Below are positions 2,363-20,458 of a stretch of 24,000 bases of DNA, piece by piece (position 1 is the first letter of the stretch; each line of letters opens with the position of its first letter). The notes under the pieces are model-generated. The model saw only the letters and a list, made by a program, of their open reading frames with translations, was not told the DNA's origin and made no database searches. The stretch is from positions 18,489 through 42,488 of the forward strand of contig NZ_JBHSGG010000041.1 of the NCBI RefSeq assembly GCF_042654365.1, given 5' to 3'. Made by a program: the position numbers and the translations under genes. Source of the DNA: Coralloluteibacterium thermophilum (lineage in GTDB: Bacteria > Pseudomonadota > Gammaproteobacteria > Xanthomonadales > Xanthomonadaceae).

Positions 2363-2589
2363 GAAGCGGGAATCGGGAATGGGGAATCGGGAATCGGGAA
2401 TGGGAGGCGGCAGCGGAGTGAGCGACGGAGCTCCGCATCCCCACCTCACCAACCTCCAGGTCCCGATCCCCATTCCCGATTTCCGCTTCACCCAACGCCA
2501 TACTGGCCCCTTCGGGACATACAGAGCGCGGCATCCCCGCCTCACCCGCCCCCAGGTCCCGATTCCCGACTCCCCATTCCCGCTTCACC
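2363..2589. repeat. G-heptad inverted-repeat element, copy A (composite, gene-less)
   Basis: G-arm 2363-2405: GAAGCGGGAATCGGGAATGGGGAATCGGGAATCGGGAATGGGA. Two C-arms at 2456-2492 and 2552-2589, whose reverse complements are GGTGAAGCGGAAATCGGGAATGGGGATCGGGACCTGG and GGTGAAGCGGGAATGGGGAGTCGGGAATCGGGACCTGG. Same family as copies at 8454, 12691 and 20275. Confidence 0.8.
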
Positions 2590-2599
2590 AAAAAAAGCC

Positions 2600-3775
2600 A
2601 TGCCCATCCCCTCCCTCCTCGACACCGACCTCTACAAGTTCACGATGATGCAGGCGGTGCTGCACCAGCATCCGGCGGCGCAGGTGGAGTACCGCTTCAA
2701 GTGCCGGACGCCGGGCGTGGATCTGGCGCGGCACGTGGATGCGATCTCCGAGGGGATCGACGCGCTGTGCGCGCTGCGCTTCCGGGAGGACGAGCTGGAC
2801 TGGCTGCGGGGGCTGCGCTTCATCCGCTCGGACTTCGTCGACTTCCTCGGCCTGTTCCGCCTCGACCGCAAGTACGTGCATCTCGCGCCGTCGGCGTCGG
2901 TGCCGGGGGAGATCGACCTGACGATCCGCGGGCCGTGGCTGCACACCATCCTGTTCGAGGTGCCGCTGCTGGCCCTCGTCAGCGAGGTCTGGTCGCGCGC
3001 GACGCACGTGCTCGACCCGGCCGAGGGGCTGCGCCGGCTCGACGCCAAGATCGAGCGCCTGGTGGCGGCCGATCCCGAGGGCCGGCTCGCCATCGCCGAC
3101 TACGGCACCCGGCGGCGCTTCTCGCGCGACTGGCAGCGCCAGGTGCTGCTGCGCCTGCGCGAGGGGCTGGGGCCGCGCTTCGTCGGCACCAGCAACGTGA
3201 TGTACGCGCGCGAGCTGGGCATGACGCCGCTGGGCACCATGGCGCACGAGTGGCTGCAGGCCTTCCAGGCGCTGGGTCCGCGCCTGCGCGACTCGCAGAA
3301 GGCGGCGTTCGAGGCCTGGGCGCAGGAGTACCGGGGCGACCTCGGCATCGCGCTGTCGGACGTGGTCGGGATCGACGCCTTCCTGCGCGACTTCGACATG
3401 TACTTCTGCAAGCTGTTCGACGGCATGCGGCAGGACTCGGGCGATCCCTTCGCCTGGGGCGACCGGGTCGTCGCCCACCTCGCCGCCAACCGCGTGGACC
3501 CGCGCACCAAGACCCTGGTGTTCAGCGACGCGCTCGACGTCGAGCGCGTGCTGGCGCTGCAGGACTACTTCCGCGGCCGCGCGCGCGTGGCCTTCGGCAT
3601 CGGCACCAACCTCACCAACGACGTCGGCCCCCGGCCGCTGTCGCTGGTGATCAAGATGACCCGCTGCAACGGTCAGCCGGTGGCCAAGCTGAGCGACTCG
3701 CCGGGCAAGACCATGTGCGAGGACCCGGGCTACGTCGCCTACCTGCGGCAGGTGTTCGGCGTCGCCGAAGGCTAG
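2600..3775 (+). CDS. pncB: nicotinate phosphoribosyltransferase
   Basis: Lies inside track ORF 2321..3775(+). Start ATG at 2600 ([21 protein letters not shown]...). NAPRTase-type blocks [27 protein letters not shown]. The upstream part of the track ORF is repeat translation. Confidence 0.9.
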
Positions 3776-3855
3776 GGCGCGCGGGCGGCGGAAGGCGCCC
3801 GGGCCGCGACGCCCCGGACGTTCTGCCGCCCGCGCTCGCCGTGCCCCTGGAACGA

Positions 3856-3883
3856 GGAACGGGCGCATCGCTGCGCCCGTTCC
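3856..3883. terminator. GC-rich hairpin between convergent pncB and ettA (possible bidirectional terminator)
   Basis: Perfect 12-bp stem GGAACGGGCGCA / TGCGCCCGTTCC with 4-nt loop TCGC. No clear U-tract on either strand, so function is uncertain. Confidence 0.35.
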
Positions 3884-3909
3884 CGTGTCGCCGGCGTCCG
3901 CCGTGCGCC

Positions 3910-5571
<1,662 letters not shown>

Positions 5572-5789
5572 GGGGGCTCCGGGCCGGTGCGCAGGGACGG
5601 GAGGCCGGTGCGTGCGACGCGCCGACGGTCCGCGATAAGGGGCCGGCCATTATCGCGCATCGCGCCGCCCCGGGACACCGCGGTCCGCCCGGGTTTCGCC
5701 ACAATCCGCCCGCGCGGCGCCAGCATCCGCCCGCGGGGCCGCCGCGCCGCCGGCTGCAATGCGCGTCCCACCCCGAGGACGACGCGGCC

Positions 5790-7112
5790 ATGCGCGCGAT
5801 GCTGAAACTGCTGGTGATCGGAAGCCTGATCCTGGTCCTGACCCTCCCCCTGCTGCTGATGCGGGGCCTGGTGCACGAGCGCCAGGCGCGCGGTGCGGAG
5901 GCCGCCGCGGAGATCGCGCGGGCGTCCAGCCGGGCGCAGCGGGTGGTCGGGCCCTATCTCCTGATCGAGGCCGAGCGCGTGGTGCGCGTCCCGCGGGGCG
6001 CCGCCGCCGGCGACGCGCCCGTGCGGGAGACCGTCCGCGAGCTGGTCCTCCCCGAGACCCTGGTCGCCGACAGCACGCTCACCACGGAGGTCCGGCGCCG
6101 CGGCCTGTTCGGCGTGCCGCTCTACCGCGACGCGCTCGACCTGCAGGCGCGCTTCGTCGTGCCGCCGCCGCCCGTGCCGCAGGGCGAGGTGCTGAGCTAC
6201 CGCCGTACCGGCGCCGTGCTCGGCCTCGGCCTGGGCGACACGCGCGGCATCCGCAGCATCGACCTGCGCGTCGACGGGCGGGCGCTGCAGGTCGAGCCCG
6301 GCAGCGAGCAGGCCTGGCTGATGGACGGCGTGCATGCGCGGCTGGAACCCGCGGCGCTGGACGGCGGCGTCCTGCGGGTCGCCCTCAGCGCCGACCTCCT
6401 CGGCACCGGATCGCTGCGCTTCGTGCCCGCCGCGAGCGACACCCGCGTCGCCGTCCGCGGCGACTGGCCGCATCCCGGCTTCGACGGCAACTACCTGCCC
6501 GACACCCGCCGCGTCGGCGACGACGGGTTCGAGGCGGAATGGCGGGTCTCGCGCCTCGCCAGCAACGCCCAGCAGGTCCTGGCGCAGTGCGCGGAGGTCC
6601 GTCAGGGCGGCTGCCACGGGCTGGACGAGGTCGTGTTCGGGCTGCGCCTGGTCGATCCGGTGGACCGCTACCTGATGACCGACCGCGCCATGAAGTTCGG
6701 CCTGCTGTTCCTGGTGCTGGTGTTCGGCGCGGTGTTCTTCGTGGAGGCGCTGCGCGGGGTGGAGGTGCACCCGGTGCAGTACGGGCTGACCGGCCTGGCC
6801 CTCGCCCTGTTCTTCCTCCTGCTGCTGGCCCTGGCCGAGCACATCGGCTTCGGCGCGGCCTACCTCCTCGCCGCGACCGCCTGCGTGGGGCTGATCGCCG
6901 CCTACATGGGCGGCGTGCTCGGCGGGCGCCGCCGCGGGCTGGCCTTCGCCGGGCTGCTGGCCCTCCTGTACGGCCTGCTCTACGGGCTGCTGAGCGCCGA
7001 GACCTACGCCCTGCTGGTCGGCAGCGTCGTGCTGTTCGCCCTGCTGGCGACGGTCATGCTCGCGACGCGGCGGCTCGACTGGAGCCGCGTGGGGCGGCCG
7101 GAGGGCGCCTGA
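5790..7112 (+). CDS. creD: cell envelope integrity inner-membrane protein CreD
   Basis: 440-aa ORF. N-terminal membrane anchor followed by ...ERQ. CreD-like blocks [60 protein letters not shown]. An alternative ATG exists at 5799. Confidence 0.85.
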
Positions 7113-7119
7113 GGCCGCG

Positions 7120-7159
7120 CCCGGCGCGGGGCGCGGCGTGGCCGCAACCCCGCGCCGGG
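7120..7159 (+). terminator. GC hairpin downstream of creD (possible terminator)
   Basis: 12-bp stem CCCGGCGCGGGG (7120-7131) / CCCCGCGCCGGG (7148-7159) with a 16-nt loop, followed by TCTACAATTCC. No strong U-tract. Confidence 0.3.
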
Positions 7160-7198
7160 TCTACAATTCCGGGCTTTCCGCAGACCAAGGCGCGCCCC

Positions 7199-8452
7199 AT
7201 GTTCCCCAGCAGCATGCGTATCGAAGGCTACGACCCCGAGCTTGCCCAGGCCATCGCCGACGAGCGTCGCCGCCAGGAGGACCATGTCGAGCTCATCGCC
7301 TCCGAGAACTACGCCAGCCCCCGCGTGATGGAGGCCCAGGGCAGCGCGCTGACCAACAAGTACGCCGAGGGCTATCCGGGCAAGCGCTACTACGGCGGCT
7401 GCGAGTACGTCGACGTGGCCGAGCGGCTCGCCATCGACCGCCTGAAGCAGCTGTTCGACGCGGACTACGCCAACGTGCAGCCGCACTCGGGCTCGCAGGC
7501 CAACCAGGCCGTGTACTTCGCGCTGCTGCAGCCGGGCGACACCATCCTCGGCATGTCGCTGGCCCACGGCGGGCACCTCACCCACGGCGCCAAGGTCAAC
7601 GCTTCGGGCAAGCTGTTCGACGCGGTCCAGTACGGCGTGAACGACCAGGGCCTGATCGACTACGACGAGGTCGAGCGCCTCGCCGTCGAGCACAAGCCGA
7701 AGATGATCGTCGCCGGCTTCAGCGCCTATTCGCGGGTGATCGACTGGGCGCGCTTCCGCGCCATCGCCGACAAGGTCGGCGCCTACCTGTTCGTGGACAT
7801 GGCGCACGTGGCCGGCCTGGTCGCCGCGGGCGTCTACCCGAACCCGCTGCCGCACGCCCATGTGGTCACCTCGACCACCCACAAGACCCTGCGCGGTCCG
7901 CGCGGCGGCATCATCCTCGCCAAGGGTGCGGACGAGGAACTGACCAGGAAGTTGCAGTCCATCGTCTTCCCCGGCATCCAGGGCGGCCCGCTGATGCACG
8001 TGATCGCGGCCAAGGCGGTCGCCTTCAAGGAGGCGCTGGAGCCGGCGTTCAAGGCCTACCAGCAGCAGGTGGTGAAGAACGCCCAGGCCATGGCGCGGAC
8101 CATCGTCGAGCGCGGCTACCGGATCGTCTCCGGCGGTACCGAGAATCACCTCATGCTGGTCGACATGATCGGCAAGGGCATCACCGGCAAGGACGCCGAG
8201 GCCGCCCTCGGCCGCGCCCACATCACGGTCAACAAGAACAGCGTCCCCAACGACCCGCAAAAGCCTTTCGTCACCTCCGGCCTGCGCCTCGGCACCCCCG
8301 CCGTCACCACCCGCGGCTACGTCGAGCAGGACTGCATCGACCTCGCCCACTGGATCTGCGACGTCCTCGACGCCCCGGCGGACGAGAGCGTCATCGCCGC
8401 GGTGCGCGAGAAGGTGGTGGCGCAGTGCAGGAGGTATCCGGTCTACGGGTGA
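7199..8452 (+). CDS. glyA: serine hydroxymethyltransferase
   Basis: Lies inside track ORF 5759..8452(+). Start ATG at 7199 ([38 protein letters not shown]...). 417 aa. PLP-lysine region [16 protein letters not shown]. Confidence 0.97.
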
Positions 8453-8453
8453 C

Positions 8454-8927
8454 GCGGGAATGGGGACTCGGGAATCGGGACCTGTGGGCGTTTGAAGGTC
8501 GGAGGGCTCGCCATGGAGGGCGGGATGGCGCAGGATTTCAGGGATCTGCGGGTGTGGGAGGAGGCGATGCAGCTGGCCGAGCGCGTATACGCGCTCGCCG
8601 GGCGCCTTCCGCGGGAGGAGCGCTTCGGCCTGTCGATGCAGATGCGCAAGGCGGCGGTTTCCGTGCCTTCGTGCATTGCGGAAGGCAATGGCAGATCCTC
8701 GCTGGCCGACTATCTTCGCTTCCTTTCCATGGCACGCGGCTCCCTGTCGGAGGTCCAGACACAGCTGCTTCTCGCGGGGCGCCTGGGCTTCCTGTCTCCG
8801 GATGATGTCGATGCCGCCCTTGCGCAGGCGCGCACGGTCGGCATGCTGCTCACCGGCCTTCGACGAGCCCTGGCCTCCAAGACCGCATAATCCCCGCCAT
8901 TCCCGATTCCCCCTTCCCGATTCCCGA
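8454..8927 (+). mobile_element. G-heptad inverted-repeat element, copy B, carrying a four-helix-bundle gene (putative non-autonomous cassette)
   Basis: G-arm 8454-8484 (GCGGGAATGGGGACTCGGGAATCGGGACCTG). C-arm 8891-8927 (reverse complement TCGGGAATCGGGAAGGGGGAATCGGGAATGGCGGGGA). Fills the glyA-nrdR spacer. Mobility is inferred from the multiple copies, not demonstrated. Confidence 0.5.
8525..8890 (+). CDS. four-helix-bundle protein (23S rRNA intervening-sequence protein / Avd-like family)
   Basis: Family-typical pattern DFRDLRVWEEAM...ERFGLSMQMRKAAVSVPSCIAEGNGRSS..DYLRFLSMARGSLSEVQTQLLLAGRLGFL. Start ATG at 8525 is preferred because GGAGG lies 5 nt upstream. Alternatives are ATG 8513 and TTG 8492 (the track start). 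Confidence 0.85.
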   Translation: MAQDFRDLRVWEEAMQLAERVYALAGRLPREERFGLSMQMRKAAVSVPSCIAEGNGRSSLADYLRFLSMARGSLSEVQTQLLLAGRLGFLSPDDVDAALAQARTVGMLLTGLRRALASKTA

Positions 8928-8935
8928 CAGCCCCC

Positions 8936-9469
8936 ATGCACTGCCCCTTCTGCCAGCACGAGGACACCCGGGTCATCGACTCGCGGCTGACCGACGACGG
9001 CACGACGGTGCGGCGGCGGCGGGAGTGCCCGCAGTGCGGGGAGCGCTTCAATACGTTCGAGACGGCCGAGCTCAAGCTGCCGGCCATCGTGAAGAGCGGG
9101 GAGCGGCGGGAGGCCTTCGACGAGCGCAAGCTGCGCACCAGCTTCGAGCGCGCGCTGCAGAAGCGACCGGTGGCGGCCGATGCCGTGGAGCAGGCCCTGC
9201 GCAACGTGGTGGCCGACCTGCGCAAGGCGACCGAGCGCGAGGTGCCCTCGCGCCACGTGGGCGAGCTGGTGATGCGCGAGCTCAAGAAGCTCGACCAGGT
9301 CGCCTACGTGCGCTTCGCCTCGGTCTACCGGCGCTTCGAGGACGTGCAGGCCTTCCGCGAGGAGATCGAGAAGCTCGAGCGCGACATGCCGGGGCTCGAG
9401 GCGGCCCAGCTGTCCCTGCTGGGCGAGGCCGCGGTGCCGCCGCCCGCGGGCAGGCGCGGCCGCGGCTGA
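8936..9469 (+). CDS. nrdR: transcriptional repressor NrdR
   Basis: [42 protein letters not shown] zinc ribbon followed by an ATP-cone. 177 aa. Confidence 0.95.
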
Positions 9470-9581
9470 ACCGCAACGCTGCATCCCGGGCCGCGACCGC
9501 GCCGCCGACGGACCGCACGGGCGCCGCGTGCTAGGCTGCGCGCGCTCCGGCCGTCCATCGGCCGGGCGACCACGATGAACA

Positions 9582-9737
9582 CGTCTTCAGGGCGGGGTGC
9601 GATTCCCCACCGGCGGTAGGTCGATCGGCGCGGCGACGCGCGACGACGAGCCCGCGAGCGCCTCCGGCCACGCCGGAGGGTCAGCAGATCCGGTCCGAAG
9701 CCGGAGCCGACGGTCACAGTCCGGATGAAAGAAGACG
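9582..9737 (+). promoter_or_regulatory. FMN riboswitch (RFN element)
   Basis: Conserved RFN blocks CTTCAGGGCGGGGTGCGATTCCCCACCGGCGGTA, AGCCCGCGAGCGC, GGTCAGCAGATCCGGT, AGCCGGAGCCGACGGTCACAGTCCGGATGAAAGAAGA. P1 CGTCTTC (9582-9588) pairs with GAAGACG (9731-9737). Sits 81 nt upstream of the ribD ATG. Confidence 0.9.
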
Positions 9738-9818
9738 GCACGGCGCGCATCCCTCGCGGGAGGCGCGGCCGTTCCGACGCCTCTGGAGGCGTCGTTCGCC
9801 CCCGAGCGGACCGACGCC

Positions 9819-10938
9819 ATGCCCAGCCCCGCAGAATCCAGCTCCACCGCCGCCTTCGATCGTCGCGACCACGCGCACATGGCGCGCGCGCTGGCGCTCG
9901 CCGCGCGCGCGGCCTGGACCACCCGCCCCAATCCCATGGTCGGCTGCGTCCTCGCCCACGGCGACGAGGTGGTCGGCGAGGGCTGGCACGTACGCGCGGG
10001 CGAGGCGCATGCCGAGGTGCACGCACTGCGCATGGCCGGCGCGCGCGCGCGGCGCCACCGCCTACGTCACCCTCGAGCCCTGCGGGCTGCACCGGCGCAC
10101 GCCGCCCTGTGCCGACGCCCTGGTCGCGGCGGGCGTGGCGCGGGTGGTGATGGCCACCGAGGACCCCGACCAGCACGCCGGGCACGGCGTCGCACGCATG
10201 CGCGCCGCGGGCATCGTGGTCGAGTCGGGGCTCATGCGGACGCAGGCGCGGGCGCTCAACCGCGGCTTCTTCCGCCGCGTGGAGGCCGGGCGGCCCTGGG
10301 TCGCGCTCAAGCTCGCCATGAGCCTGGACGGGCGCACAGCGCTCGCCGACGGCAGCGCGCGCTGGATCACCTCCGAGGCCGCGCGCGCCGACGTGCACCG
10401 CCTGCGCGCGGCGCACGGCGCCATCCTCACCGGCATCGGCAGCGTGCTCGCCGACGACTCGCGGCTGACCGTGCGCCTGCCGCCGGACGCCCCGGCCTTC
10501 GTGCCGCCGCTGCGGGTGGTGCTCGATTCGCGCGCCCGCCTGCCCGGGAGCGCCGCGCTGCGCGACGGTGCCGCGCCGACCCTGCTGCTGCACGCGCCGG
10601 ACGCCGCGCCCGTGCCGAGCCCTGACCTGGAGGCCGAGGCCGTGCCGCGGGCGGTCGAGGGCGGGCTCGACCTCCCGTCCGTGCTCGACGCGCTGGGGCG
10701 CCGGCGCGTCAACGACCTGCTGGTCGAGTGCGGCCCGCGCCTGGCCGGTGCCTTCCTGGCGCAGCGCCTGGTCGACGAACTGGTGCTGTACGTCGCGCCG
10801 GTCCTGCTCGGCGCCGGCGGGCGGCCGCTCGCGGAGGGCATCGACCCGCCCGACATGGCCTCCCGCCTCGGCCTGCGCCTGCTGGAAACCCGGCAGGTCG
10901 GACCCGATCTGCGCCTGCGCCTCGCCGGCGCGCCCTGA
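9819..10938 (+). pseudogene. ribD: bifunctional riboflavin biosynthesis deaminase/reductase RibD, reading frame broken by a frameshift (or assembly error) at about 10039-10051
   Basis: ORF 9819.. encodes the deaminase N-terminus (NPMVGCVLAHGDEVVGEGWHVRAGEAHAEVHALRMAG). It then goes out of frame. ORF 10009..10938 in the +1 frame continues with GATAYVTLEPC..RTPPCADALVAAGVARVV and the whole reductase domain. The junction lies in the run GCGCGCGCGCGCG. Confidence 0.8.
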
Positions 10939-10957
10939 CTCCGAAGGAGACCCACCC

Positions 10958-11560
10958 ATGTTCACCGGACTGATCGAAGCCGTCGGCGCCTGGCGCGAGG
11001 CGGAGCCGCGCGGCGGCGACCTGCGCGCCTGGATCGACACCGGCACGCTGCCCGTCGCGGAGCTCGTCCTGGGCGAGAGCGTCGCGGTCAACGGCGTGTG
11101 CCTGACCGTGGTCGGGACCGATGCCGCCGGCTTCGCCGCCGACATCTCGGTCGAGACCCTGGACCGCACCACGCTCGGCACGCTGGGGCCCGGCCGCGCG
11201 GTCAATCTCGAACGCGCGCTGCGCGCGGACGCGCGCCTCGGCGGCCACCTCGTCGCCGGCCACGTCGACGGGATCGGCGAGGTCGTGGCCATCGCCGAGG
11301 ACGGCCGCGGCCAGCGCTGGCGCTTCCGGGCGCCGGAGGCGTTGCGGCGCTACATCGCCGAGAAGGGCTCCGTCTGCGTCGACGGCGTCAGCCTCACCGT
11401 GGCGTCGCTGACCGGAGACGGCTTCGAGGTCGCCCTGGTGCCGCACACCCTCGCGCACACCGCCTTCCACCGTCTCGCTGCGGGCGATCCGGTCAACCTC
11501 GAGATCGACCTCGTCGCCCGCTACGTCGAGCGCCTGCTCGGCGCCGCCGCGCCCCGCTGA
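10958..11560 (+). CDS. ribE: riboflavin synthase (alpha chain)
   Basis: Lies inside track ORF 10568..11560. Start ATG at 10958 preceded by AAGGAGA. MFTGLIEAVG... with the duplicated motif VNGVCLTV / VDGVSLTV. Confidence 0.93.
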   Translation: MFTGLIEAVGAWREAEPRGGDLRAWIDTGTLPVAELVLGESVAVNGVCLTVVGTDAAGFAADISVETLDRTTLGTLGPGRAVNLERALRADARLGGHLVAGHVDGIGEVVAIAEDGRGQRWRFRAPEALRRYIAEKGSVCVDGVSLTVASLTGDGFEVALVPHTLAHTAFHRLAAGDPVNLEIDLVARYVERLLGAAAPR

Positions 11561-11595
11561 CCGACGCGCTCCCCACGACTTCCACAGGACCCGAC

Positions 11596-12714
11596 ATGCC
11601 CTTCGCACCCGTACCCGAACTGCTCGAGGAAATCCGCGCCGGCCGCATGGTCGTCGTCGTCGACGACGAGGACCGCGAGAACGAGGGCGACCTCATCATG
11701 GCCGCGGAGCTGGTGCGCCCGCAGGACGTGAACTTCATGGTCACCCACGCGCGCGGGCTGGTGTGCCTGGCGCTGACCCGCGAGCGCTGCGCGCAGCTGG
11801 GGCTGGGGCCGATGGTCCGCGACAACACCGCGCAGTACCAGACCGCCTTCACCGTCTCCATCGAGGCCGCCGAGGGCGTCACCACCGGCATCTCCGCCTA
11901 CGACCGCGCGCACACCATCCGCACCTCGGTGCGACCCGATGCCAGGCCGTCCGACCTGGTGCAGCCCGGCCACATCTTCCCGCTCGCCGCGCATCCGGGC
12001 GGCGTGCTCAGCAGGGCGGGGCACACCGAGGCGGCGGTCGATCTCGCCATGCTCGCCGGGCTGGAGCCCGCCGGCGTCCTGGTCGAGGTGCTCAATCCCG
12101 ACGGCTCCATGGCCCGGCGGCCGGAGCTGGAGGCCTTCGCACGCGAGCACGGGCTCAAGATCGGCTCGATCGAGGACCTGATCGCCTACCGGCTCGCCAC
12201 CGAGCACACCGTGGAGCGCATCGATGCGCGCGGGATCGAGACCGAATTCGGCCCCTTCACCCTCGTCACCTACCGCGACCGCATCGCTCACGACCTGCAC
12301 TTCGCCCTGGTGCGCGGCGCGCCGGACGCCACGACCCCGACCCTGGTGCGCGTGCAGGTGGAGAACCCGCTCGCCGACCTGCTGCACTGGCGCCGCGAGG
12401 ACTTCGGCGTCGCCGGCACCGACGCGCTGCGCGCCATCGCCGAGGCCGGCAGCGGCGTGATGGTGGTGCTGTCCGCGCCGCGCGATCCCGACGCCCTGCT
12501 GGCCCGCCTGCGCGCCGAACCCGCCCCCGCGGACCGCCGCGACGTCGGCGAATGGCGACGCAACGGCGCCGGCGCCCAGATCCTCGCCGAACTCGGCCTC
12601 GGCCCCCTCCGCGTCCTCGGCACCCCCCGCCGGCAGGTCGGGTTGGCGGGGTTCGGGCTGGAGGTGGTGGAGTATGTGGAGCTGGAAAATGCGGGAATGG
12701 GGAATCGGGAATAG
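11596..12714 (+). CDS. ribBA: 3,4-dihydroxy-2-butanone-4-phosphate synthase fused to a GTP cyclohydrolase II-like domain (RibBA/RibBX type)
   Basis: Lies inside track ORF 11098..12714. Start ATG at 11596. DHBP synthase blocks DDEDRENEGDLIMAAE and AGHTEAAVDLA. C-terminal GCH-II-like half. The last 8 codons (AGMGNRE*) are encoded by the repeat arm. Confidence 0.9.
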   Translation: MPFAPVPELLEEIRAGRMVVVVDDEDRENEGDLIMAAELVRPQDVNFMVTHARGLVCLALTRERCAQLGLGPMVRDNTAQYQTAFTVSIEAAEGVTTGISAYDRAHTIRTSVRPDARPSDLVQPGHIFPLAAHPGGVLSRAGHTEAAVDLAMLAGLEPAGVLVEVLNPDGSMARRPELEAFAREHGLKIGSIEDLIAYRLATEHTVERIDARGIETEFGPFTLVTYRDRIAHDLHFALVRGAPDATTPTLVRVQVENPLADLLHWRREDFGVAGTDALRAIAEAGSGVMVVLSAPRDPDALLARLRAEPAPADRRDVGEWRRNGAGAQILAELGLGPLRVLGTPRRQVGLAGFGLEVVEYVELENAGMGNRE

Positions 12715-13014
12715 GGACCTGGAAGTCGGCGCGTGATTGGGGCCTCGCGCTGGCGGCCTCCACGCCCTCGGCGCCCTGCAGCGGGTAGGGCAGGAGTGGA
12801 AGGGGCTCGGGAATAGGGCCTCACGGTCGGCTCGCGGTCGGAGTTCGAGCTTCGGGTGCCGGGGTCGAGAACGGGGCGCGGCGTGCGTGCCTCTCCCTCT
12901 CTCCGTTCCGCTTCGTGCCTCTCCGTCGCCCTCACTCTGCCCCACCTTGCCAGTCCGTCCCGCCCTCCAGGTCCCCATTCCCGATTCCCCATTCCCGCTT
13001 TTCCCGCTTCATCC
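12691..13014. repeat. G-heptad inverted-repeat element, copy C (gene-less, rearranged)
   Basis: G-arm 12691-12722: GCGGGAATGGGGAATCGGGAATAGGGACCTGG. Internal partial arm 12802-12822: GGGGCTCGGGAATAGGGCCTC. C-arm 12967-13014, reverse complement GGATGAAGCGGGAAAAGCGGGAATGGGGAATCGGGAATGGGGACCTGG. Confidence 0.75.
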
Positions 13015-13039
13015 CCCATCCCGTAAACTCCCCGCCCCC

Positions 13040-13537
13040 ATGTCCCATCCCTCCGCCACCAGCCCCGTCGCGGGCGACGTCCGTGCTCCGGACGGCGCGC
13101 GCTTCGCCGTCCTCTCCACGCGCTGGAATCCCGAGATCGTCGAGCCGCTGGTCGCGGGCGCGGTGGCGGCGCTGCGCGCGCGCGGGGTGGCGGACGCCGC
13201 CATCGACGTGATCCGCGTGCCCGGGGCGTGGGAGCTGCCGATCATGGCCGAGCGCATCGCGCGGGCCGGCGGGCATGCCGCCGTCGTGGCGCTGGGCTGC
13301 GTGGTCCGTGGCGACACCCGCCACTACGAGCACGTCGCCGACGAGTGCGCGCGCGGGCTGATGCGCGTCGCCCTCGACCACGCCCTGCCGGTCGCCAACG
13401 GCGTGCTCGCGGTCGAGCGCCGCGCCGACGCCGAGGCGCGCGCCGGCGGCAGCCACGGCAACAAGGGCGAGGAGGCGGCGCTGGCCGCGCTCGAACTCGC
13501 CCACCTGTTCTCCCTGTCCCCGAGTGGTCCTGCATGA
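13040..13537 (+). CDS. ribH: 6,7-dimethyl-8-ribityllumazine synthase
   Basis: Lies inside track ORF 12737..13537. Start ATG at 13040. Blocks [51 protein letters not shown]. Confidence 0.93.
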
Positions 13538-13992
13538 ACCGTCGTCCCGAAGGCATCGATCCCGCCGCGCGCTCGCGCGCCCGCCGCCGCGCCCTGCAGG
13601 CGGTCTACGCCTGGCAGCTGTCCGGCACGCCGGTGGTGGAGGTGCTGGCCCAGTTCCGGCACGAGCAGGACATGGAGATCGCCGACGCGGAGTACTTCGA
13701 GGACCTCGTGCGCGGGGTGGTGACCCATTGCGGCGACCTGGACGAGGGCCTCGCGCGCTTCGTCGACCGCCCGCTGCCGCAGGTCGACCCCATCGAGCGG
13801 GCCGCGCTGCGCATCGCCGCCTACGAACTCGTGCACCGCATCGACGTGCCCTACCGCGTGGTCATCAACGAAGCCATCGAGAGCGTGAAGCGCTTCGGCG
13901 CCGAGCACGGCCACACCTACGTCAACGGCGTGCTCGACCGCGCCGCGCTCGAATGGCGCGCCGCCGAGGCCGGTGCCGCGCGCAGGCGCTGA
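13534..13992 (+). CDS. nusB: transcription antitermination factor NusB
   Basis: Lies inside track ORF 13228..13992. Start ATG at 13534 overlaps the ribH stop (ATGA). [16 protein letters not shown]..., [26 protein letters not shown]. Confidence 0.93.
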
Positions 13993-13999
13993 TGTCCCC

Positions 14000-14102
14000 G
14001 TAGGAGCGGCTTCAGCCGCGACCGGCAGGACAGTGCAGGCGTGCATGACCCATGATGCCGCGGATCGCGGCCGCCGCCGGTCGCGGCTGAAGCCGCTCCT
14101 AC
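14000..14102. repeat. REP-like perfect inverted pair
   Basis: GTAGGAGCGGCTTCAGCCGCGACCGG (14000-14025) and its exact reverse complement CCGGTCGCGGCTGAAGCCGCTCCTAC (14077-14102), separated by 51 nt. Each arm contains its own mini-hairpin GCGGC-TTCA-GCCGC. Confidence 0.75.
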
Positions 14103-14116
14103 CGGGTCCGCTACTG

Positions 14117-15094
14117 ATGCCGTCCGAATTCGACCTGATCGCCCGCATCCGCAGCCGCGCCGCCCTCCGTCCCGACGTGGCGCTCGGCATAGGCGACGAC
14201 GCGGCCGTGCTGCGCGTTCCGCCGGGGTGCGAGCTGGTCGTCACCAGCGACACGCTCAACGCGGGCGTGCACTTCTTCGAGGACGTGCCGCCCTTCGACC
14301 TCGGCTGGAAGGCCCTCGCGGTGAACCTGTCCGACCTCGCGGCCATGGGCGCGAGGCCGGCCTGGTGCACGCTCGCGCTGTCGTTGGCGGCGCCGGATGC
14401 CGCCTGGCTCGATGCCTTCGTCGGCGGCCTGCTCGCGCTGGCGGCGGACCACGACGTGGCCCTGGTCGGCGGCGACACCACCCGCGGGCCGCTGTCGATC
14501 AACGTCACCGCGCACGGCCTGGTGGAGGCCGGCACCGCGCTGCGCCGCGACGGCGCGCGGGCCGGCGACGCGGTGTGGGTGACCGGCGTTCCCGGCGAGG
14601 CCGCGGCGGGGCTGGCGGTGCTGCGGGCGGAGCGCGAGGGGCGGGCCCTGGCCCTCGCGCCCGACGTCCGCGCGCAGCTGGTCGGGCGCCTGCAGCGCCC
14701 GCAGCCCCGCGTCGCCGCCGGATGCGCACTCCGGGGCCTCGCCACGGCCTGCCTCGACGTGTCCGACGGCCTGCTCGCCGACCTCGGCCACATCGCGACC
14801 GCCAGCGGACTCGGCGCCGAGCTCGATCCCGTCGCCCTGCCGGTGCCGCCGGCGCTCGCGGCGCTGCCGCCGCCGCTGCGCCGCGACGCGCAGCTCGCCG
14901 GCGGCGACGACTACGAACTGTGCTTCACCGCGCCCGCGGACGCCGATGCGGCGGTGCGGGCCGCGCTGGCCGGCGTCGGGCTGCCGGCGACCCGCATCGG
15001 CCGCATGGTGCCTGGGCGGGATGTGCGCGTGCGCGGGGAGGATGGAGAATGGCGGGTTCCGCCGCATCGCGGCTTCGATCACTTCCGCGCATGA
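14117..15094 (+). CDS. thiL: thiamine-monophosphate kinase
   Basis: Lies inside track ORF 13973..15094. Start ATG at 14117 (MPSEFDLIARIRSR...GIGDDAAVL...TSDTLNAGVHF...LAVNLSDLAAMGA). Confidence 0.9.
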   Translation: MPSEFDLIARIRSRAALRPDVALGIGDDAAVLRVPPGCELVVTSDTLNAGVHFFEDVPPFDLGWKALAVNLSDLAAMGARPAWCTLALSLAAPDAAWLDAFVGGLLALAADHDVALVGGDTTRGPLSINVTAHGLVEAGTALRRDGARAGDAVWVTGVPGEAAAGLAVLRAEREGRALALAPDVRAQLVGRLQRPQPRVAAGCALRGLATACLDVSDGLLADLGHIATASGLGAELDPVALPVPPALAALPPPLRRDAQLAGGDDYELCFTAPADADAAVRAALAGVGLPATRIGRMVPGRDVRVRGEDGEWRVPPHRGFDHFRA

Positions 15095-15624
15095 GCCAAC
15101 CCGCATCGCCCACCGGCCAGGACCGCAGCCTGCTGCGCGCCCGCATCCTGCTCCGGCATCCCGCCGGCTGGCTCGCCACCGGGCTCGGGGTCGGCATGGC
15201 CGCGCGCGCGCCCGGCACCTTCGGCAGCATCGCGGCGCTGGCGCCCTGGCTGCTGCTGCGCGAACTGCCGTTCGCGGGCTACCTGGCCGCGGTGGCGGTG
15301 ACCTTCGCCCTCGGCGTGTGGGCGTCGAACTGGGTGATCGCGCGGACCGGTGTGGAGGATCCCGGCGTGGTCGTGCTCGACGAGTTCGTCGGGCTGTGGA
15401 TCGCGCTGGCGCTGGCGCCGCCGGGCTGGGGCTGGATGCTGGCGGGGCTGCTGCTGTTCCGGGTGTTCGACATCGCCAAGCCCTGGCCGGTCTCCTGGGC
15501 CGACCGCCGCATCAAGGGCGGCTTCGGCGCCATGTTCGACGACGCGCTCGCCGGCCTGTACGCCTTCGGGGTGCTGCAGCTGGCCGCGTGGTGGCTCGGC
15601 CACGGCGGCATCCTCCCGGGCTGA
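15091..15624 (+). CDS. pgpA: phosphatidylglycerophosphatase A
   Basis: Lies inside track ORF 14227..15624. Start ATG at 15091 overlaps the thiL stop (ATGA). PGTFGS, VVLDEFVG, FRVFDIAKPWP, GGFGAMFDD. Confidence 0.9.
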   Translation: MSQPASPTGQDRSLLRARILLRHPAGWLATGLGVGMAARAPGTFGSIAALAPWLLLRELPFAGYLAAVAVTFALGVWASNWVIARTGVEDPGVVVLDEFVGLWIALALAPPGWGWMLAGLLLFRVFDIAKPWPVSWADRRIKGGFGAMFDDALAGLYAFGVLQLAAWWLGHGGILPG

Positions 15625-15645
15625 GGGTGGGTGCCGCGGACGCGG

Positions 15646-17037
15646 TCACGCCGCCGCGGGGGGCAGCACCTTGCCCGGGTTGAGGATGCCGTCGGGGTCG
15701 AAGGCCTGCTTGACCGTGCGCATCAGGGCGAGGGTCGGTGCGTCGAAGGCCTGCGCCATGAAGTCGCGCTTGGCGGTGCCGATGCCGTGCTCGCCGGACA
15801 GGGTGCCGCCCAGGGACAGAGTCAGCGCGAACAGGCGCGGCAGCGCGCTGCGCGCCCGGGCGGACTCGGCCGCGTCGTCCGGGTCGAACAGGATGTTGAC
15901 GTGCAGGTTGCCGTTGCCGGCGTGCCCGAAGGCGACGATGCGCAGGTCGAACTCCGCCGCCAGCGCCTCGACGCCCGTCACCAGGTCGGGGATGCGCGAG
16001 ACCGGCACCACCACGTCCTCGTTGATCTTGCCGGCCGCGATGGTGCGCAGCGCCGGCGAGAGCGCGCGGCGGGCCGCCCACAGCGCCTCGCTGGCGGCGG
16101 CGTCGGGCGCGGCGTCGAGGGCGAGCAGCCCAGGGCCGCGCGCGGCGTCGGCCAGCGCGCGCGTCGCCAGTTCCACGGTCGCCGCATCGCCGTCGGCCTC
16201 GATCATCAGCAGTGCGCCGGCGTCGGGAATGTCCGCGCCGCCGACCTCGCGTGCCAGCCGGATGCAGTGCCGGTCCATGAACTCCAGCATGGCCGGGGCC
16301 ACCGGCTGGCGCATGAGGCGCGCGACCGCCGCGGCCGCGGCGGCCACGTCGGCATAGAGTGCGCGCAGGCTGCGTCGCGCCGACGGCAGCGGCGCGAGCT
16401 TCAGCGTCGCCTCGACGATCAGCCCGAGCGTGCCCTCGCTGCCGACCAGCAGGTGGGTGAGGTCGTAGCCGGTCGCGTCCTTGGTGGTGCGGCTGCCGCA
16501 GGTGACCAGGTCCCCGGTGCCGGTCACGGCGGCGAGGCCGAGCACGTTGTCGCGGGTGGCGCCGTACTTCACGGTGCGCGGCCCGCCGGCATTGCAGGCG
16601 AGGTTGCCGCCGACCGTGCAGGTGTCCGCGCTGGCCGGGTCCGGCGGCCAGAACAGGCCGTGCGCGGCGAGCGCGCGCTGCAGGTCGCCGTTGAGCACGC
16701 CGGGCTCGACCACGGCGATGCGGTCCGCAGGGTCGATGGCAAGGATGCGCGCCATGCGCTCGAAGCCGACCACCACGGCGCCACCGCCGGGAATCGCCGC
16801 GCCGGTGCTGCTGGTCCCGCTGCCGCGCGCGACCACCGGCACCCGGTGCGTCCGGCACGCGTGGACCAGCGCGACCACCTGTTCGCGACGCTCCGGCAGC
16901 GCCACCCCCGCAGCCGGCACGCCCCGCCGCGAGGCGTCCTCCCCGTAGCGCCGAAGCGTCTCCGCATCCACCCGCCACCCGTCCCCGAGCAGCGCGGCGA
17001 GCGCGTGGGCGAGGGCGGGCGGGAGGAGGCTGGGCAT
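15646..17037 (-). CDS. FAD-binding oxidase, GlcD / D-lactate dehydrogenase family
   Basis: Lies inside track ORF 15646..17361(-). Start ATG at 17037 (MPSLLPPALAHALAALLGDGWRVD...). FAD-binding PCMH-type block VVARGSGTSSTGAAIP. C-terminal GGTLSGEHGIGTAKRDFM and DPDGILNPGKV. The first 108 codons of the track ORF are repeat translation. Confidence 0.85.
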   Translation of the reverse strand: MPSLLPPALAHALAALLGDGWRVDAETLRRYGEDASRRGVPAAGVALPERREQVVALVHACRTHRVPVVARGSGTSSTGAAIPGGGAVVVGFERMARILAIDPADRIAVVEPGVLNGDLQRALAAHGLFWPPDPASADTCTVGGNLACNAGGPRTVKYGATRDNVLGLAAVTGTGDLVTCGSRTTKDATGYDLTHLLVGSEGTLGLIVEATLKLAPLPSARRSLRALYADVAAAAAAVARLMRQPVAPAMLEFMDRHCIRLAREVGGADIPDAGALLMIEADGDAATVELATRALADAARGPGLLALDAAPDAAASEALWAARRALSPALRTIAAGKINEDVVVPVSRIPDLVTGVEALAAEFDLRIVAFGHAGNGNLHVNILFDPDDAAESARARSALPRLFALTLSLGGTLSGEHGIGTAKRDFMAQAFDAPTLALMRTVKQAFDPDGILNPGKVLPPAAA

Positions 17038-17327
17038 GGGGCAGGGGTGGGATTGGGAGGTGGGGAAGTATGGGGCAGGGGCGCCGGGCGCGGGCCCAGG
17101 GCTTGGGGCGCAGGGCTTGGGGCAGAGGGCAGGGGCAGGGGCAGGGGCAGAGGGCAGAGGGCAGAGGGCTTGGGGCAGGGGGCGTAGCGTCGGCCCCGAG
17201 CCCCGAGCCCCGAGCCCCGAGCCCCAGGCCCCAGGCCCCAGGCCCAAAGCCCAAAGCCCAAAGCCCCGAGCCCCGAGCCCCAAGCCCCAAGCCCCAAGCC
17301 CCAAGCCCCAAGCCCAGCCCCAGGCCC
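17038..17327. repeat. head-to-head array of G-rich hexa/heptamer tandem repeats
   Basis: Left half is G-rich on the + strand, including (CAGGGG)x3 and (CAGAGGG)x3 flanked by CTTGGGG. Centre lies around 17184-17192. The right half is 17 in-phase heptamers at 17193-17311: (GCCCCGA)4 (GCCCCAG)3 (GCCCAAA)3 (GCCCCGA)2 (GCCCCAA)5. Confidence 0.9.
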
Positions 17328-17332
17328 ACCAA

Positions 17333-17710
17333 CTAGAAGAGCTCGTCCATCCGGAAGGCATCCCGCAGCCAGCGCACCTGGGGTGCGTCGGGGGCGCCCT
17401 CCAGGGCGAGGACGTCGAAGCGGCAGGGGGCTTCGGCGAGGCGGCGGTCCGCGGCGAGGAAATGGCGTGCGGCGAGGGCGATGCGGCGCCGCTTGCGCAG
17501 GTCGATCGAGGCGGCGGCGCCGCCGAAGGCGCTGCCGCGGCGGTAGCGCACCTCGACGAACACCACGGTGTCGCCGTCGCGCATCACCAGGTCGATCTCG
17601 CCGCCGCGCACCCCGAAGTTGGTCGCCAGGGTGCGCAGGCCGGCGGCTTCCAGGTGGCGCCGGGCCGCGGCCTCGGCGCGCGTGCCCTCACTCGTAGGGG
17701 ATGTCGTCAC
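17333..17710 (-). CDS. yraN: YraN family (UPF0102) endonuclease-like protein
   Basis: 125-aa [17 protein letters not shown]...[22 protein letters not shown]...RFDVLAL pattern typical of YraN. Sits downstream of lpoA as in other Gammaproteobacteria. Confidence 0.85.
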
Positions 17711-19280
17711 GGGCGTCCTGCCCTGGCGCGAGCGTCTCCACGTCCTGCGGGATCAGTGCGCCGTCCAGCGCCGAGCGGGTGCGGCCGCCGCTGAACATGG
17801 CCCAGGCCGGGTCGCGCACGACGTTGCCGAAGCCGTCGAGACGCAGCTCGCCGGTGGCGCCGGGCACGCCGCGCTCTGCGCTGCGGCCGAGGTGGTCGAG
17901 GTAGGCCGTCAGCAGCCAGGCGTCGGCGCCGAAGGCGAACAGGCGCGCGCCATTGCCGCGGGCGGAGGGCAGGCGGCCCGACAGCGTCTCGGCCGTCGGC
18001 AGGCCCGGCGTGGCGCGCAGCATCCACGGCAGCTCGGGGTATTCGATGCCGTCCAGCTCGCGGTCCAGCTGCGGGTTGCCGCCGCCCGAGAGGACGAGGG
18101 AGGTCGCCATGACCGGGCGGCCGCCCATGCCCACCGCGGTCAACTGCGGGACCAGCAGGCGCGCCTCCGGCGCGCGCAGCGCCATGAACACCGCATCGAA
18201 GTCGGCCCCGACGCCGCTCATGCGGAGCTGTTCGCTGTAGTCCGGGCCCGGGCCGGCCAGCGCGATCTCCGCCACCACGTCGCCGCCCTCGGCGGCCACC
18301 CGCTCGCGGAAGGCGGCGGCGCTGCGGCGGCCGTTGTCGTCGCTGCCGAAGACCGACACCACGCGGCGCAGCCCGCGCTGCAGCAGGCGGTCGGCGGCGG
18401 CCACGCCCTCGTCCTCCGGCGCCAGGGAGAAGCTCGCGCTGCCCGGCGGGGGCGGGGCCTGGACGCGGTTCAGCGCCAGCAGCGGCACCGGCAGGTCGCC
18501 GGCGAAGAGCTGCGCCACCGACTCCTGCGACAGCGGGCCCACGACCAGCTGCGCGCCCTCGGCCACGGCGCGCTGGTAGGCGGCGAGGGCGCCCGCGGCC
18601 TCGGAATCGTAGAAGCGCACGTCCGGGCGCCTGCGGCGCTCGCCGTACCAGGCGGTGAGGTAGCCGTCGCGCACCGCGTTGCCGGCCGGGGCGAGACGCC
18701 CGCTCAGCGGCAGCAGCACCGCGACGCGCTCCGGCGGGCGGTAGCCGTCGGCCTCGGCGGTCGGCCAGTCTCCCGCCTCGATGCCGCCGGCGAGCTGGAG
18801 CTCGGGCGGCAGCGCGCGCGGCAGGGCCAGGCCGCGGCGGGTGAGTGCACGCGCGGCGGAGGGATAGAGCGGATGGCCCTCGGGCAGGGTGGCGGCGGCA
18901 TCCGAGAGGGTGCGGTCCGGCAGGCGGGACAGCAGCGCGTCGATGCGGCGCTGGTTCGCGCCGGCGGCGTCCGGCGGCAGGATCGGCTGCAGGTAGGCGA
19001 GTTCGGCGGCGGCGCCGAAGTCGTCGCCGGTGCGCTCCAGCAGGTCGGCGCGGAGCGGGTGCCAACGGGCGCGGAGCGAGTCCGGCACCTGGTCGGCCTC
19101 GAGGTCGAGGCTGGCGAGGGCGGCCTCGGATTCGCCCAGGGCGGCCGAGGCCCGCGCCTGGTCGAGCTGCTGCCCGGCGCGGCCGGCATCCTGCGTTCGC
19201 GCCGGCCCGCGTTCGACCATCACGTTGGCGCAGCCACCGGCGAGGAGGCTGGCGACACACAGCACGAGGAGGCGTTTCAT
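17688..19280 (-). CDS. lpoA: penicillin-binding protein activator LpoA (LppC family lipoprotein)
   Basis: Lies inside track ORF 17688..19922(-). Start ATG at 19280 gives a lipoprotein signal [17 protein letters not shown]. Periplasmic-binding-like C-terminal part [24 protein letters not shown]. Divergent from rsmI. The 3' end overlaps the yraN start by 23 nt. Confidence 0.85.
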
Positions 19281-19440: not shown

Positions 19441-20271
19441 ATGACCGCTTCCCCCACGCCAGGCACGCTCTTCGTCGTCGCCACCCCCATCGGCAACCTC
19501 GACGACATCGCGCCGCGCGCCCTGGAGACCCTGCGACGGGCGGACGCGGTCTGCGCCGAGGACACCCGCCACACCCGCCGCCTGCTGGCCCACTTCGGCA
19601 TCGAGCGGCCGCTCCTGGCCCTGCACGAGCACAACGAGACGGCGCAGGCGGATGCCCTGGTGGCGCGGCTGGCCGGCGGCGCCTCGCTCGCCCTGGTGAG
19701 CGACGCCGGCACGCCGCTGGTGAGCGATCCCGGTTTCGTGCTGGTCCGGGCGGCGCGCGCGGCGGGCATCCGGGTCAGTCCGGTGCCGGGCGCCTGCGCC
19801 GCGGTGGCCGCCCTCTCCGTCGCCGGCATCCCCAGCGACCGCTTCGCCTTCGAGGGCTTCCTGCCCGCCAAGGCGGGACTGCGGCGCGAGCGCCTGCAGG
19901 CCCTGGCCGGAGAGCCGCGCACCCTGGTGTTCTACGAGAGCGCGCACCGCATCGAGGCCTCCCTGGCCGACATGGCGGCCCTGCTCGGGCCCGACCGCCC
20001 TGCGGCCATCGCCCGCGAGCTCACCAAGCTGTTCGAGACGGTGCTGGACGGCCCGCTGGGCGATCTCGCCGCGCGCGTCGCCACCGATCCCGACCAGCGC
20101 CGCGGGGAGTTCGTCGTGGTGGTGCAGGGCGCCGGCGAGGATGCCGACGCGGCCCTCGCCGAGGGCAGGCGGGTCTACGCCCTGCTGAGCGCCCACCTCC
20201 CGCCGTCCCAGGCCGCCCGCCTCGCGGCCGAGATCACCGGGGCGCCGAGGAAGGGGTTGTATGGGGGGTGA
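19441..20271 (+). CDS. rsmI: 16S rRNA (cytidine1402-2'-O)-methyltransferase
   Basis: 276-aa ORF. GTLFVVATPIGNLDDIAPRALETLRRADAVCAEDTRHTRRLL, SDAGTPLVSDPG, FYESAHR. Confidence 0.93.
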   Translation: MTASPTPGTLFVVATPIGNLDDIAPRALETLRRADAVCAEDTRHTRRLLAHFGIERPLLALHEHNETAQADALVARLAGGASLALVSDAGTPLVSDPGFVLVRAARAAGIRVSPVPGACAAVAALSVAGIPSDRFAFEGFLPAKAGLRRERLQALAGEPRTLVFYESAHRIEASLADMAALLGPDRPAAIARELTKLFETVLDGPLGDLAARVATDPDQRRGEFVVVVQGAGEDADAALAEGRRVYALLSAHLPPSQAARLAAEITGAPRKGLYGG

Positions 20272-20274
20272 GGA

Positions 20275-20428
20275 GAAGCGGGAATGGGGAATCGGGAATC
20301 GGGACCTGGGGCGAGGTACGGCCTGCTGCTGCGCCACCCGGCGACGCCTTCAGACGGAGCGTTCCTCCCCGAAGCCAAGCGACCCAACCATTCCCAATTC
20401 CCGATTCCCGATTCCCCATTCCCGCTTC
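20275..20428. repeat. G-heptad inverted-repeat element, copy D (154-bp MITE-like miniature)
   Basis: Left end GAAGCGGGAATGGGGAATCGGGAATCGGGA (20275-20304). It is identical over 30/30 nt to the reverse complement of the right end (20428 back to 20399). About 80 nt of unique core. Confidence 0.85.
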
Positions 20429-20458
20429 ATCCCCCCAACCCATGCCACAATCCCGTCC

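Follow-up and report, generated by a model that had tools for sequence, protein, structure and literature searches.

The 295-bp spacer (positions 17038-17332) between yraN and a gene for a flavin adenine dinucleotide (FAD)-linked oxidase in Coralloluteibacterium thermophilum is occupied throughout by two arrays of short G-rich repeats placed back to back. The spacer lies in a 24,000-nucleotide stretch of contig NZ_JBHSGG010000041.1, hereafter the window, which is a chromosome segment of high GC content (~73-75%). The repeat is real and statistically overwhelming. It has the architecture of the known G-quadruplex (G4)-capable heptamer repeats of Xanthomonadaceae and is not a new kind of element; what is new is the unit type (GGGGCNN), the very large size and the abutting arms. 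We consider it probable that the spacer is an oversized, unit-shifted G-tract heptamer array of the Xanthomonadaceae/Lysobacteraceae, grown by lineage-specific slippage and with a plausible effect in cis.

Anatomy and origin of the spacer

The product of the oxidase gene (15646-17037, minus strand) is covered over its 463 amino acids by the Pfam domains FAD_binding_4 and FAD-oxidase_C, and the yraN product (17333-17710, minus strand) matches UPF0102. Alignments of oxidase orthologues start at residues 1-5, and the database copy of the protein (P0001) likewise has 463 amino acids. Unit parsing, Tandem Repeats Finder (TRF) and a predicted fold divide the spacer and its borders as follows.

17035-17037, minus strand: start codon ATG of the FAD-linked oxidase gene (CAT on the plus strand).
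17038-17071, plus strand: irregular G-tract zone beside the oxidase start codon, GGGGCA GGGGT GGGATT GGGAGGT GGGGAAGTAT (unit parsing).
17072-17118, plus strand: semi-regular part of the left arm with a period of ~14 and GGGCCCAGGGCTTG-like units (TRF, unit parsing).
17119-17182, plus strand: regular part of the left arm, CAGAGGG (CAGGGG)3 (CAGAGGG)3 CTTGGGG CAGGGGG, preceded on the same strand by another CTTGGGG (parsing, TRF).
~17183-17193, no strand: centre CGTAGCGTCGG, 11 nt, where the composition flips; loop of the predicted hairpin (parsing, fold).
17193-17311, minus strand: right arm, 17 in-phase heptamers, G-rich on the minus strand (TRF, parsing).
17312-17332, minus strand: right arm, degenerate tail GCCCAGCCCCAGGCCCACCAA reaching to the yraN stop; the array ends at 17327, 5 nt before that stop (parsing).
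17333-17335, minus strand: stop codon TAG of yraN (CTA on the plus strand).

The left arm contains 22 runs of at least three G (17038-17182) and is separated by the 11-nt centre from 20 C-tracts (17194-17327). Its units are GGGGCA, GGGCAGA and GGGCTT, with a single GGGATT at 17049, and those on the minus strand are GGGGCTC, GGGGCTT, GGGGCCT and GGGCTTT. Read on the plus strand, the right arm consists of the blocks (GCCCCGA)4 (GCCCCAG)3 (GCCCAAA)3 (GCCCCGA)2 (GCCCCAA)5, that is 4-3-3-2-5, and is without any T. TRF assigns it a period of 7 with 19.6 copies and 90% matches; the left arm has a period of 7/14, with period-14 rows at 17092-17123 and 17098-17183. Matches to the G-tract pattern extend over 17092-17182 on the plus strand and 17194-17315 on the minus strand. 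The GCCCCRRGCCCCRRGCCCC pattern, allowing at most one mismatch, is matched 13 times against 0.01 expected, and GGGN4GGGN4GGGN4GGG is matched 42 times in the window against 0.04 expected.

Re-parsing the sequence reproduced the boundaries, the left-half units, the centre and the right-half blocks given in the original prediction, which had also attributed the blocks to local slippage. That origin is likely given a runs test on the right arm, where the observed order has 5 runs against 13.35 expected; none of 200,000 permutations reached this value. The same permutation test on the left arm gave no significant departure (P = 0.10). The G-rich strands had been described as diverging from the centre; they are in fact convergent and run 5' to 3' towards it, as in the pairs described by Rehm et al. 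On the coding (minus) strand the G-rich arm begins 5 nt past the yraN stop, and the antisense G-rich arm begins 0 nt from the oxidase ATG.

The closest genome is that of Coralloluteibacterium stylophorae, which was reached via the product of a PF05635 gene elsewhere in the window (83% identity). Its locus (L201) is collinear with window positions ~1500-19200 at 74-85% nucleotide identity, the alignment breaks exactly at 17039 and 17340, and its oxidase-yraN spacer has 14 bp, ggcgggagtggcgg. In a comparison set of 80 other Lysobacteraceae loci (L001-L080), yraN lies upstream of the oxidase gene on the same strand in 73, and the gap between the two, where no gene intervenes, ranges from a 7-nt overlap to ~270 bp. 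A heptamer array immediately upstream of the oxidase gene was found in 0 of these 80 loci. Given the 14 bp in C. stylophorae and the lack of an array in the loci of the other relatives, the spacer array is, as judged by comparison of the loci, a recent expansion gained in this lineage. The difference of 295 bp against 14 bp between species shows rapid turnover. Because the blocks are homogeneous and the two arms have independent unit repertoires, the array most probably grew by slippage in place.

The best non-self database homologue of the oxidase is 78% identical, the closest being those of Pseudoxanthomonas and Luteimonas (77-78%), and exact-product look-ups for the yraN and oxidase products of the window recorded no identical product. 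In the comparison with C. stylophorae, protein identity is lowest for the oxidase (70%) and YraN (62%), and their neighbours reach 79-93% (window 15646-17710, L201 17070-18841); the oxidase of the window is closer to its Pseudoxanthomonas and Luteimonas homologues. The orthologous yraN-oxidase spacer is also a hotspot of unrelated palindromic insertions that resemble repetitive extragenic palindromic (REP) elements, many of them GTAG...CTAC (in L002, L009, L011, L015, L016 and L027).

Relation to the heptamer arrays of the family

Rehm, Wurmthaler, Li, Frickey and Hartig described heptamer repeats of the GGGAATC/GGGNATC type in Xanthomonas in 2015 in PLoS One (PMC4692102). Each genome carries ~185 arrays, of which 89-93% are intergenic and the modal length is four units, and 70-75 inverted pairs with one array per strand in convergent arrangement (PMC4692102). 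The G-rich repeat lies at most 50 bp from a stop codon on the sense or a start codon on the antisense strand (PMC4692102). Oligonucleotides of the GGGAATC type form K+-dependent G4 in vitro, and most arrays are transcribed, no function or regulatory role having been identified (PMC4692102). The class is spread across all functional categories and phase variation was judged unlikely; there is no association with mobile elements, the flanking genes are 90% conserved, and array lengths vary between X. campestris and X. citri (PMC4692102). The citing papers that were searched are reviews, G4 surveys and one repeat-detection method, none of which addresses the function of the repeats. In addition, G3N4 heptamer arrays are strain-level markers for multilocus variable-number tandem-repeat (VNTR) analysis (MLVA) in Xanthomonas, with 6-18 copies in the GGGATTT/GGGATTC/GGGAATC arrays (PMC8002079).

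The class is defined by a period-7 tandem array of at least two units (at least 14 bp), which TRF finds in the spacer, and by at least four consecutive tracts of three or more G with short loops, which are present there as 22 + 20 tracts and 5 + 5 non-overlapping canonical G4 motifs. The spacer array is also an inverted convergent pair, has the class position relative to the flanking stop and start, and belongs to a host in the Xanthomonadaceae/Lysobacteraceae, as indicated by the synteny with C. stylophorae and the oxidase homologues in Pseudoxanthomonas and Luteimonas. Like the arrays of Rehm et al., it is an intergenic period-7 G-tract array of the same family that abuts open reading frames (ORFs), is arranged as the frequent convergent pairs are, and varies in length between species. 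It differs from them in its units, which are GGGGCAG, GGGCAGA, GGGGCTC, GGGGCTT, GGGGCCT and GGGCTTT instead of GGGANTN, and in having ~20 tracts per arm instead of a modal four, and it fills the whole spacer. Its arms lie 11 nt apart and are merely 70-80% complementary, and no relative examined has the array at this site.

The MLVA loci of Xanthomonas, such as Xe_02 (TCCCCAT), Xe_04 (CGATTCC) and Xe_09 (GGGATTT/GGGATTC/GGGAATC) of X. euvesicatoria, are alike in having G3-4N3-4 heptamers, in copy numbers that shift by slippage and in compound arrays of variant units (PMC8002079). Polymorphism among strains has been demonstrated for these loci (4-18 copies), whereas the spacer array is larger, bipartite and known from one genome (PMC8002079). 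By analogy, the spacer may be the hypervariable VNTR that had been proposed, a claim that holds at the level of the class only.

Other dispersed repeats are more distant. REP elements, bacterial interspersed mosaic elements (BIMEs) and REP doublets forming hairpins (REPINs) of E. coli and Pseudomonas, and the GTAG palindromes of Stenotrophomonas and its relatives, are also intergenic and hairpin-forming; these elements are rare between divergent genes and are thought to stabilise 3' ends or to insulate transcripts. REPs, however, are non-tandem imperfect palindromes of unique sequence, 20-40 nt long and mobilised by REP-associated tyrosine transposases (RAYTs), and the spacer arms lack a defined short palindrome with conserved ends. 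The GGGGA(C/T)T heptamers of Nostoc PCC 7120 (PMC4692102) and the TAACTGA heptamers of Beggiatoaceae (PMC4679880) are likewise period-7 tandem repeats that are abundant between genes, lie at preferred positions with respect to ORFs and may act post-transcriptionally. They differ in phylum, unit and arrangement, the TAACTGA repeats being direct, unpaired and without G-tracts.

Within the window, five other intergenic spacers have the same architecture with canonical GGGAATC-type (GGGAATN) arrays. The gene order is pyrF, pncB, ettA, creD, glyA, the PF05635 gene, nrdR, a flavin mononucleotide (FMN) riboswitch, ribD-E-BA, ribH, nusB, thiL, the GlcD-like FAD oxidase gene (15646-17037, minus strand), yraN (17333-17710, minus strand), lpoA, rsmI, the RNase P RNA gene, mraZ and rsmH. 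The sibling arrays are G-rich (on the plus strand) at the left gene boundary and/or C-rich at the right one, regardless of gene orientation.

2363-2590, no strand: GGGAATC-type G array at 2363-2405 and two C arrays at ~2459-2492 and ~2550-2590, in the pyrF/pncB spacer.
8451-8927, no strand: G array at 8451-8481 directly past the glyA stop and C array at 8899-8927 immediately ahead of the nrdR start; the PF05635 gene (8513-8890) lies between them.
12688-13009, no strand: G array at 12688-12717 past the ribBA stop and C array at 12972-13009 before the ribH start.
20275-20428, no strand: G array at 20275-20310 past the rsmI stop and C array at 20390-20428 before the RNase P RNA gene.

The kinship that had been noticed between these arrays and the spacer array stands, as period, strand polarity and abutment on ORFs are all equal. 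Nine GGGAAT arms were aligned (2352-2420, 2448-2500, 2538-2598, 8440-8495, 8885-8940, 12675-12732, 12955-13022, 20262-20322 and 20375-20440; alignment A1), and they have in common an ordered consensus with unique ends, TGAAGC-GGGAATG-GGGAATC-GGGAATC-GGGACCTGGAGG. The nine arms are not random products of slippage and may be copies of a defined element of ~40 nt, or reflect strong convergent constraint.

C. stylophorae does carry arrays, with other units, at pyrF|pncB, the glyA stop, the nrdR start and ribBA|ribH, and those at the glyA stop and nrdR start are also kept in Pseudoxanthomonas, Lysobacter and Stenotrophomonas, where the units are CCCCGTT or CCCCATT. Since these two arrays are conserved across genera with different units, the class retains its position, G-tract periodicity and strand polarity while its unit sequences turn over.

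The PF05635 gene (8513-8890, plus strand) between glyA and nrdR belongs to the family of 23S rRNA intervening-sequence, bAvd-like four-helix-bundle proteins. The gene and its bracket of arrays are kept in Coralloluteibacterium (L201 10001-10366), Pseudoxanthomonas, Lysobacter and Stenotrophomonas (L203-L206) with differing heptamer units, and in the latter three genera the C array falls inside the 3' end of the gene. The layout of an ORF inside a stem is reminiscent of rRNA intervening sequences. We considered whether inverted arrays could be mobile units that carry cargo, with the PF05635 gene as an example; this was rejected because in Pseudoxanthomonas, Lysobacter, Stenotrophomonas and Coralloluteibacterium the gene is a conserved resident of the glyA-nrdR interval. 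The rib leader has been rearranged locally: its FMN riboswitch precedes ribD in the window (9579-9740) but is found in the ribD-ribE spacer in C. stylophorae (L201 12319-12510). Between the divergent genes ettA and creD, a 21-nt unit, CGCCACAATCCGCCCGCGCGG, stands twice in tandem (5697-5739) and is unrelated to the heptamer arrays.

Arrays of the GGGGCNN type also occur elsewhere. A scan for (GCCCCRR)4GCCCC found at least 120 metagenome stretches with GGGGCTC, GGGGCTT or GGGGCCT arrays, mostly of 60-73% GC. Among the matches listed there are several inverted pairs, and some have a GGGATTC or GGGACTC arm opposite a GGGGCTC arm. Neighbouring mixed-strand arrays in the fetched loci were G-left/C-right in 15 cases and C-left/G-right in 1. 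On the marine contig L098, (GGGGCTT)4 directly follows a stop codon and is followed after 16 bp by (CCCTCAT)11, a back-to-back layout like that of the oxidase-yraN spacer with non-complementary units. The arm complementarity of our spacer is 0.71, among the lowest of 28 G-to-C pairs (most of which have 0.75-1.0), and the idea that its arms are mirror images was rejected on this value, which is below that of most pairs compared. ORCW01, a marine metagenome genome of 70% GC, has several heptamer families at gene ends, namely (GGGGCTT)n, (CCCTCAT)11 and (CCCGTTG)n, as well as four CCGCTAG units directly after a stop codon (L098 1320-1346, 1349-1610 and 6007-6134; L139 3331-3410).

Predicted folding and expression of the oxidase

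The minimum free energy (MFE) of the minus-strand transcript of 17030-17340 is -220.7 kcal/mol, compared with -180.1 +/- 6.0 for shuffled sequences (z = -6.75), and folding with DNA parameters gives z = -7.2. The predicted structure is a single interrupted hairpin with 107 arm-arm pairs, of which the innermost (17193-17183 and 17194-17182) surround the centre. At the predicted stem base the yraN stop (17333/17334) is paired with 17025/17024, and the A and G of the oxidase AUG are paired with 17322 and 17324. Pairing of a G-rich with a C-rich RNA arm, ending at the oxidase start, had been anticipated, and the MFE hairpin with the AUG in its stem base agrees with it at the level of prediction. 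Of the five spacers with GGGAAT pairs, four are predicted to form arm-to-arm pairing, of 13-35 pairs, versus ~100 pairs in the oxidase-yraN spacer.

Folding with G4 energies puts a quadruplex in place of the stem tip (-228.2 versus -223.9 kcal/mol). The spacer holds 10 of the 26 canonical G4 motifs of the window, non-overlapping, with five in the left arm and five in the right arm (minus strand). The 3' RNA arm contains 61% C and 16% G. Rfam 15 contains no family for this RNA, the sole match being to mir-328 below threshold (21.5 bits versus a gathering score of 70, E = 0.42). A role as a terminator had also been suggested. A canonical (intrinsic) terminator was not borne out, as the hairpin is followed by oxidase coding sequence rather than by a T-run past the stem, and a scan of 16500-18000 found no terminator-like site.

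A TANAAT hexamer (-10 box), a promoter of leaderless type, lies just upstream of the oxidase start in 33 of the 80 relatives and 6-7 nt before it in 30 of them. It is missing upstream of the oxidase in the window (17038-17075) and in C. stylophorae, and given its absence from both, the oxidase may already have depended on read-through from yraN in their common ancestor. The irregular zone at 17038-17071 forms, on the coding (minus) strand, a C-rich leader without a Shine-Dalgarno sequence. Among the leaders inspected (the 40 nt preceding the starts at 2315(-), 2600, 5571(-), 8936, 13040, 17037(-) and 19441), those of first-in-operon genes lack Shine-Dalgarno sequences, are C-rich and frequently finish with CCCC(C)ATG; GGAG-type sites are present at the internal genes ribE, rsmH and the PF05635 gene.

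Competing explanations and significance

The array arose after the split from C. stylophorae, within a spacer of ~14 bp between two probably co-transcribed genes, and it probably gained its GGGGCNN units through recurrent slippage in place during replication. The arms would have expanded independently, which would explain both the homogeneous blocks and the 70-80% complementarity of the arms. The existence of the array would require no selected function. It follows the logic of its class, in which a G-rich array stands against the ORF on its 5' side, usually with an inverted partner, and either strand reads first a G-arm and then a C-arm. In a read-through RNA from lpoA-yraN, the 5' G-arm could zip with the 3' C-arm into an interrupted hairpin of ~107 bp that would clamp the yraN stop codon to the oxidase AUG. 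Such a hairpin may terminate the upstream message or make it more stable, and may hide the oxidase start, in which case the formerly tight yraN-oxidase pair would be uncoupled and expression of the oxidase by read-through dampened. The strength of the effect might vary with copy number and with alternative G4 folding of the G-arm.

Several observations weigh against this account. The operational definition of the published class asks for at least one GGGAATC unit and for units that fit (GGGANTN)n; unit parsing found no GGGAATC in the spacer array, and its units do not fit the formula. A scan of the spacer detected neither a consensus sigma-70 promoter nor an intrinsic terminator. Hairpin formation is unlikely to have shaped the arms, given that their complementarity is among the least of the 28 pairs. 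There are also hints in the comparative data that the class may have a function missed by a pure slippage account, because some of its arrays, for example those at the glyA stop and nrdR start, are positionally conserved across genera.

The inverted arrays could instead be a selected regulatory device, the terminator, attenuator or translational mask of the original prediction, in which slippage provides heritable and reversible tuning as in contingency loci. The giant predicted hairpin that takes in the oxidase AUG and the yraN stop would suit such a role, as would the active slippage shown by the block structure and the membership of a class that behaves as a strain-level VNTR in Xanthomonas (PMC8002079). 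Without the TANAAT box that 30 of 80 relatives have 6-7 nt before the start, expression may also depend on read-through across the array. However, the closest relative and all other relatives examined lack the array at this site, there is no U-tract and no terminator-like site, and the arms are merely 70-80% complementary. The neighbours, a GlcD-like FAD-linked oxidase and YraN, are not surface or host-interaction proteins of the kind expected for a contingency locus but include a metabolic enzyme, and Rehm et al. found the class in all functional categories, with phase variation unlikely (PMC4692102). We regard a selected device as unlikely. An element that acts as four-stranded DNA or RNA (G4 or i-motif) on transcription, replication or a G4-binding protein seems to us quite unlikely. 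One possibility would be that the G-arm is locked as a G4 and leaves the C-rich, G-poor arm single-stranded as a loading site for Rho. The 42 G/C-tracts of the spacer, its share of the G4 motifs of the window, the quadruplex in the predicted fold with G4 energies and the base composition of the 3' RNA arm are all consistent with it, as are the behaviour of GGGAATC-type oligonucleotides in K+ (PMC4692102) and the turnover of unit sequences between species with G-tract periodicity and strand polarity retained. An adjoining complementary arm is, however, predicted to favour duplex or hairpin strongly, and the in vitro data concern GGGAATC-type repeats, not GGGGCNN loops. Rehm et al. found no regulatory role (PMC4692102), and the class prefers ~4 units, compared with which ~20 per arm looks like runaway expansion and not like a tuned G4.

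The clean presence/absence relative to C. stylophorae, with breakpoints at gene ends, could also mean that a pre-formed inverted-array element, similar to a REP/REPIN or a miniature inverted-repeat transposable element, was inserted whole and then diversified. The ordered consensus and unique ends of the nine GGGAAT arms suggest dispersal of a defined sequence, different GTAG...CTAC palindromes occupy the same spacer in relatives, and inverted GGGGCTC/GGGGCTT pairs are found on other contigs. Insertion is nevertheless distinctly improbable. The spacer arms have neither the nine-arm consensus ends nor a target-site duplication and are poorly complementary (0.71), and their homogeneous blocks point to growth in place. 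Rehm et al. report no association with mobile elements and 90% conserved flanking genes (PMC4692102), and no transposase-like ORF or RAYT was found in the 24-kb window. Finally, it is extremely improbable that the array is a short-read mis-assembly or is translated, whether as part of an oxidase extended at its N-terminus (ORF 15646-17361, minus strand) or as the 88-amino-acid ORF 17070-17336 (plus strand). Assembly of repeat arrays is difficult, the source contig occurs in databases as a singleton, and the two frames are open through the array because it contains no stop codons. But the period of 7 is not a multiple of 3, and orthologues, including the 463-amino-acid protein of C. stylophorae, start at the ATG at 17037; on these grounds and the length of the database protein, both ORFs were rejected as coding. 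Both flanks align to C. stylophorae right up to the array, and heterogeneous blocks of variant units are atypical of a collapsing or looping assembler, although the exact copy numbers could still be wrong.

Growth of a class array by slippage is the account that we prefer. A wider and highly speculative reading is that the family's G-tract heptamer arrays mark gene boundaries as polar elements, and that these could be bidirectional insulators that act through a hairpin or through a G4 that leaves the C-rich arm exposed for Rho loading. Transcripts from either side would meet the G-arm first and the C-arm second. If this were true, the locus would record the birth of an insulator inside a formerly tight yraN-oxidase pair and the splitting of an operon, and the oxidase would be under a structural switch that is tunable by copy number.

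From the perspective of the repeat family, the spacer is an extreme, unit-shifted case of a system that was described in 2015. In the predicted RNA clamp, one gene's stop codon would be joined to the start codon of its downstream neighbour. The array has a datable origin and offers a natural experiment, with a 14-bp spacer in the sister species, a 295-bp double array here, and flanking genes intact on both sides. If isolates of the organism can be had, the locus is suited to asking whether such arrays are neutral products of slippage, whether they alter the expression of their neighbours, and whether they form hairpins or G4 in vivo.

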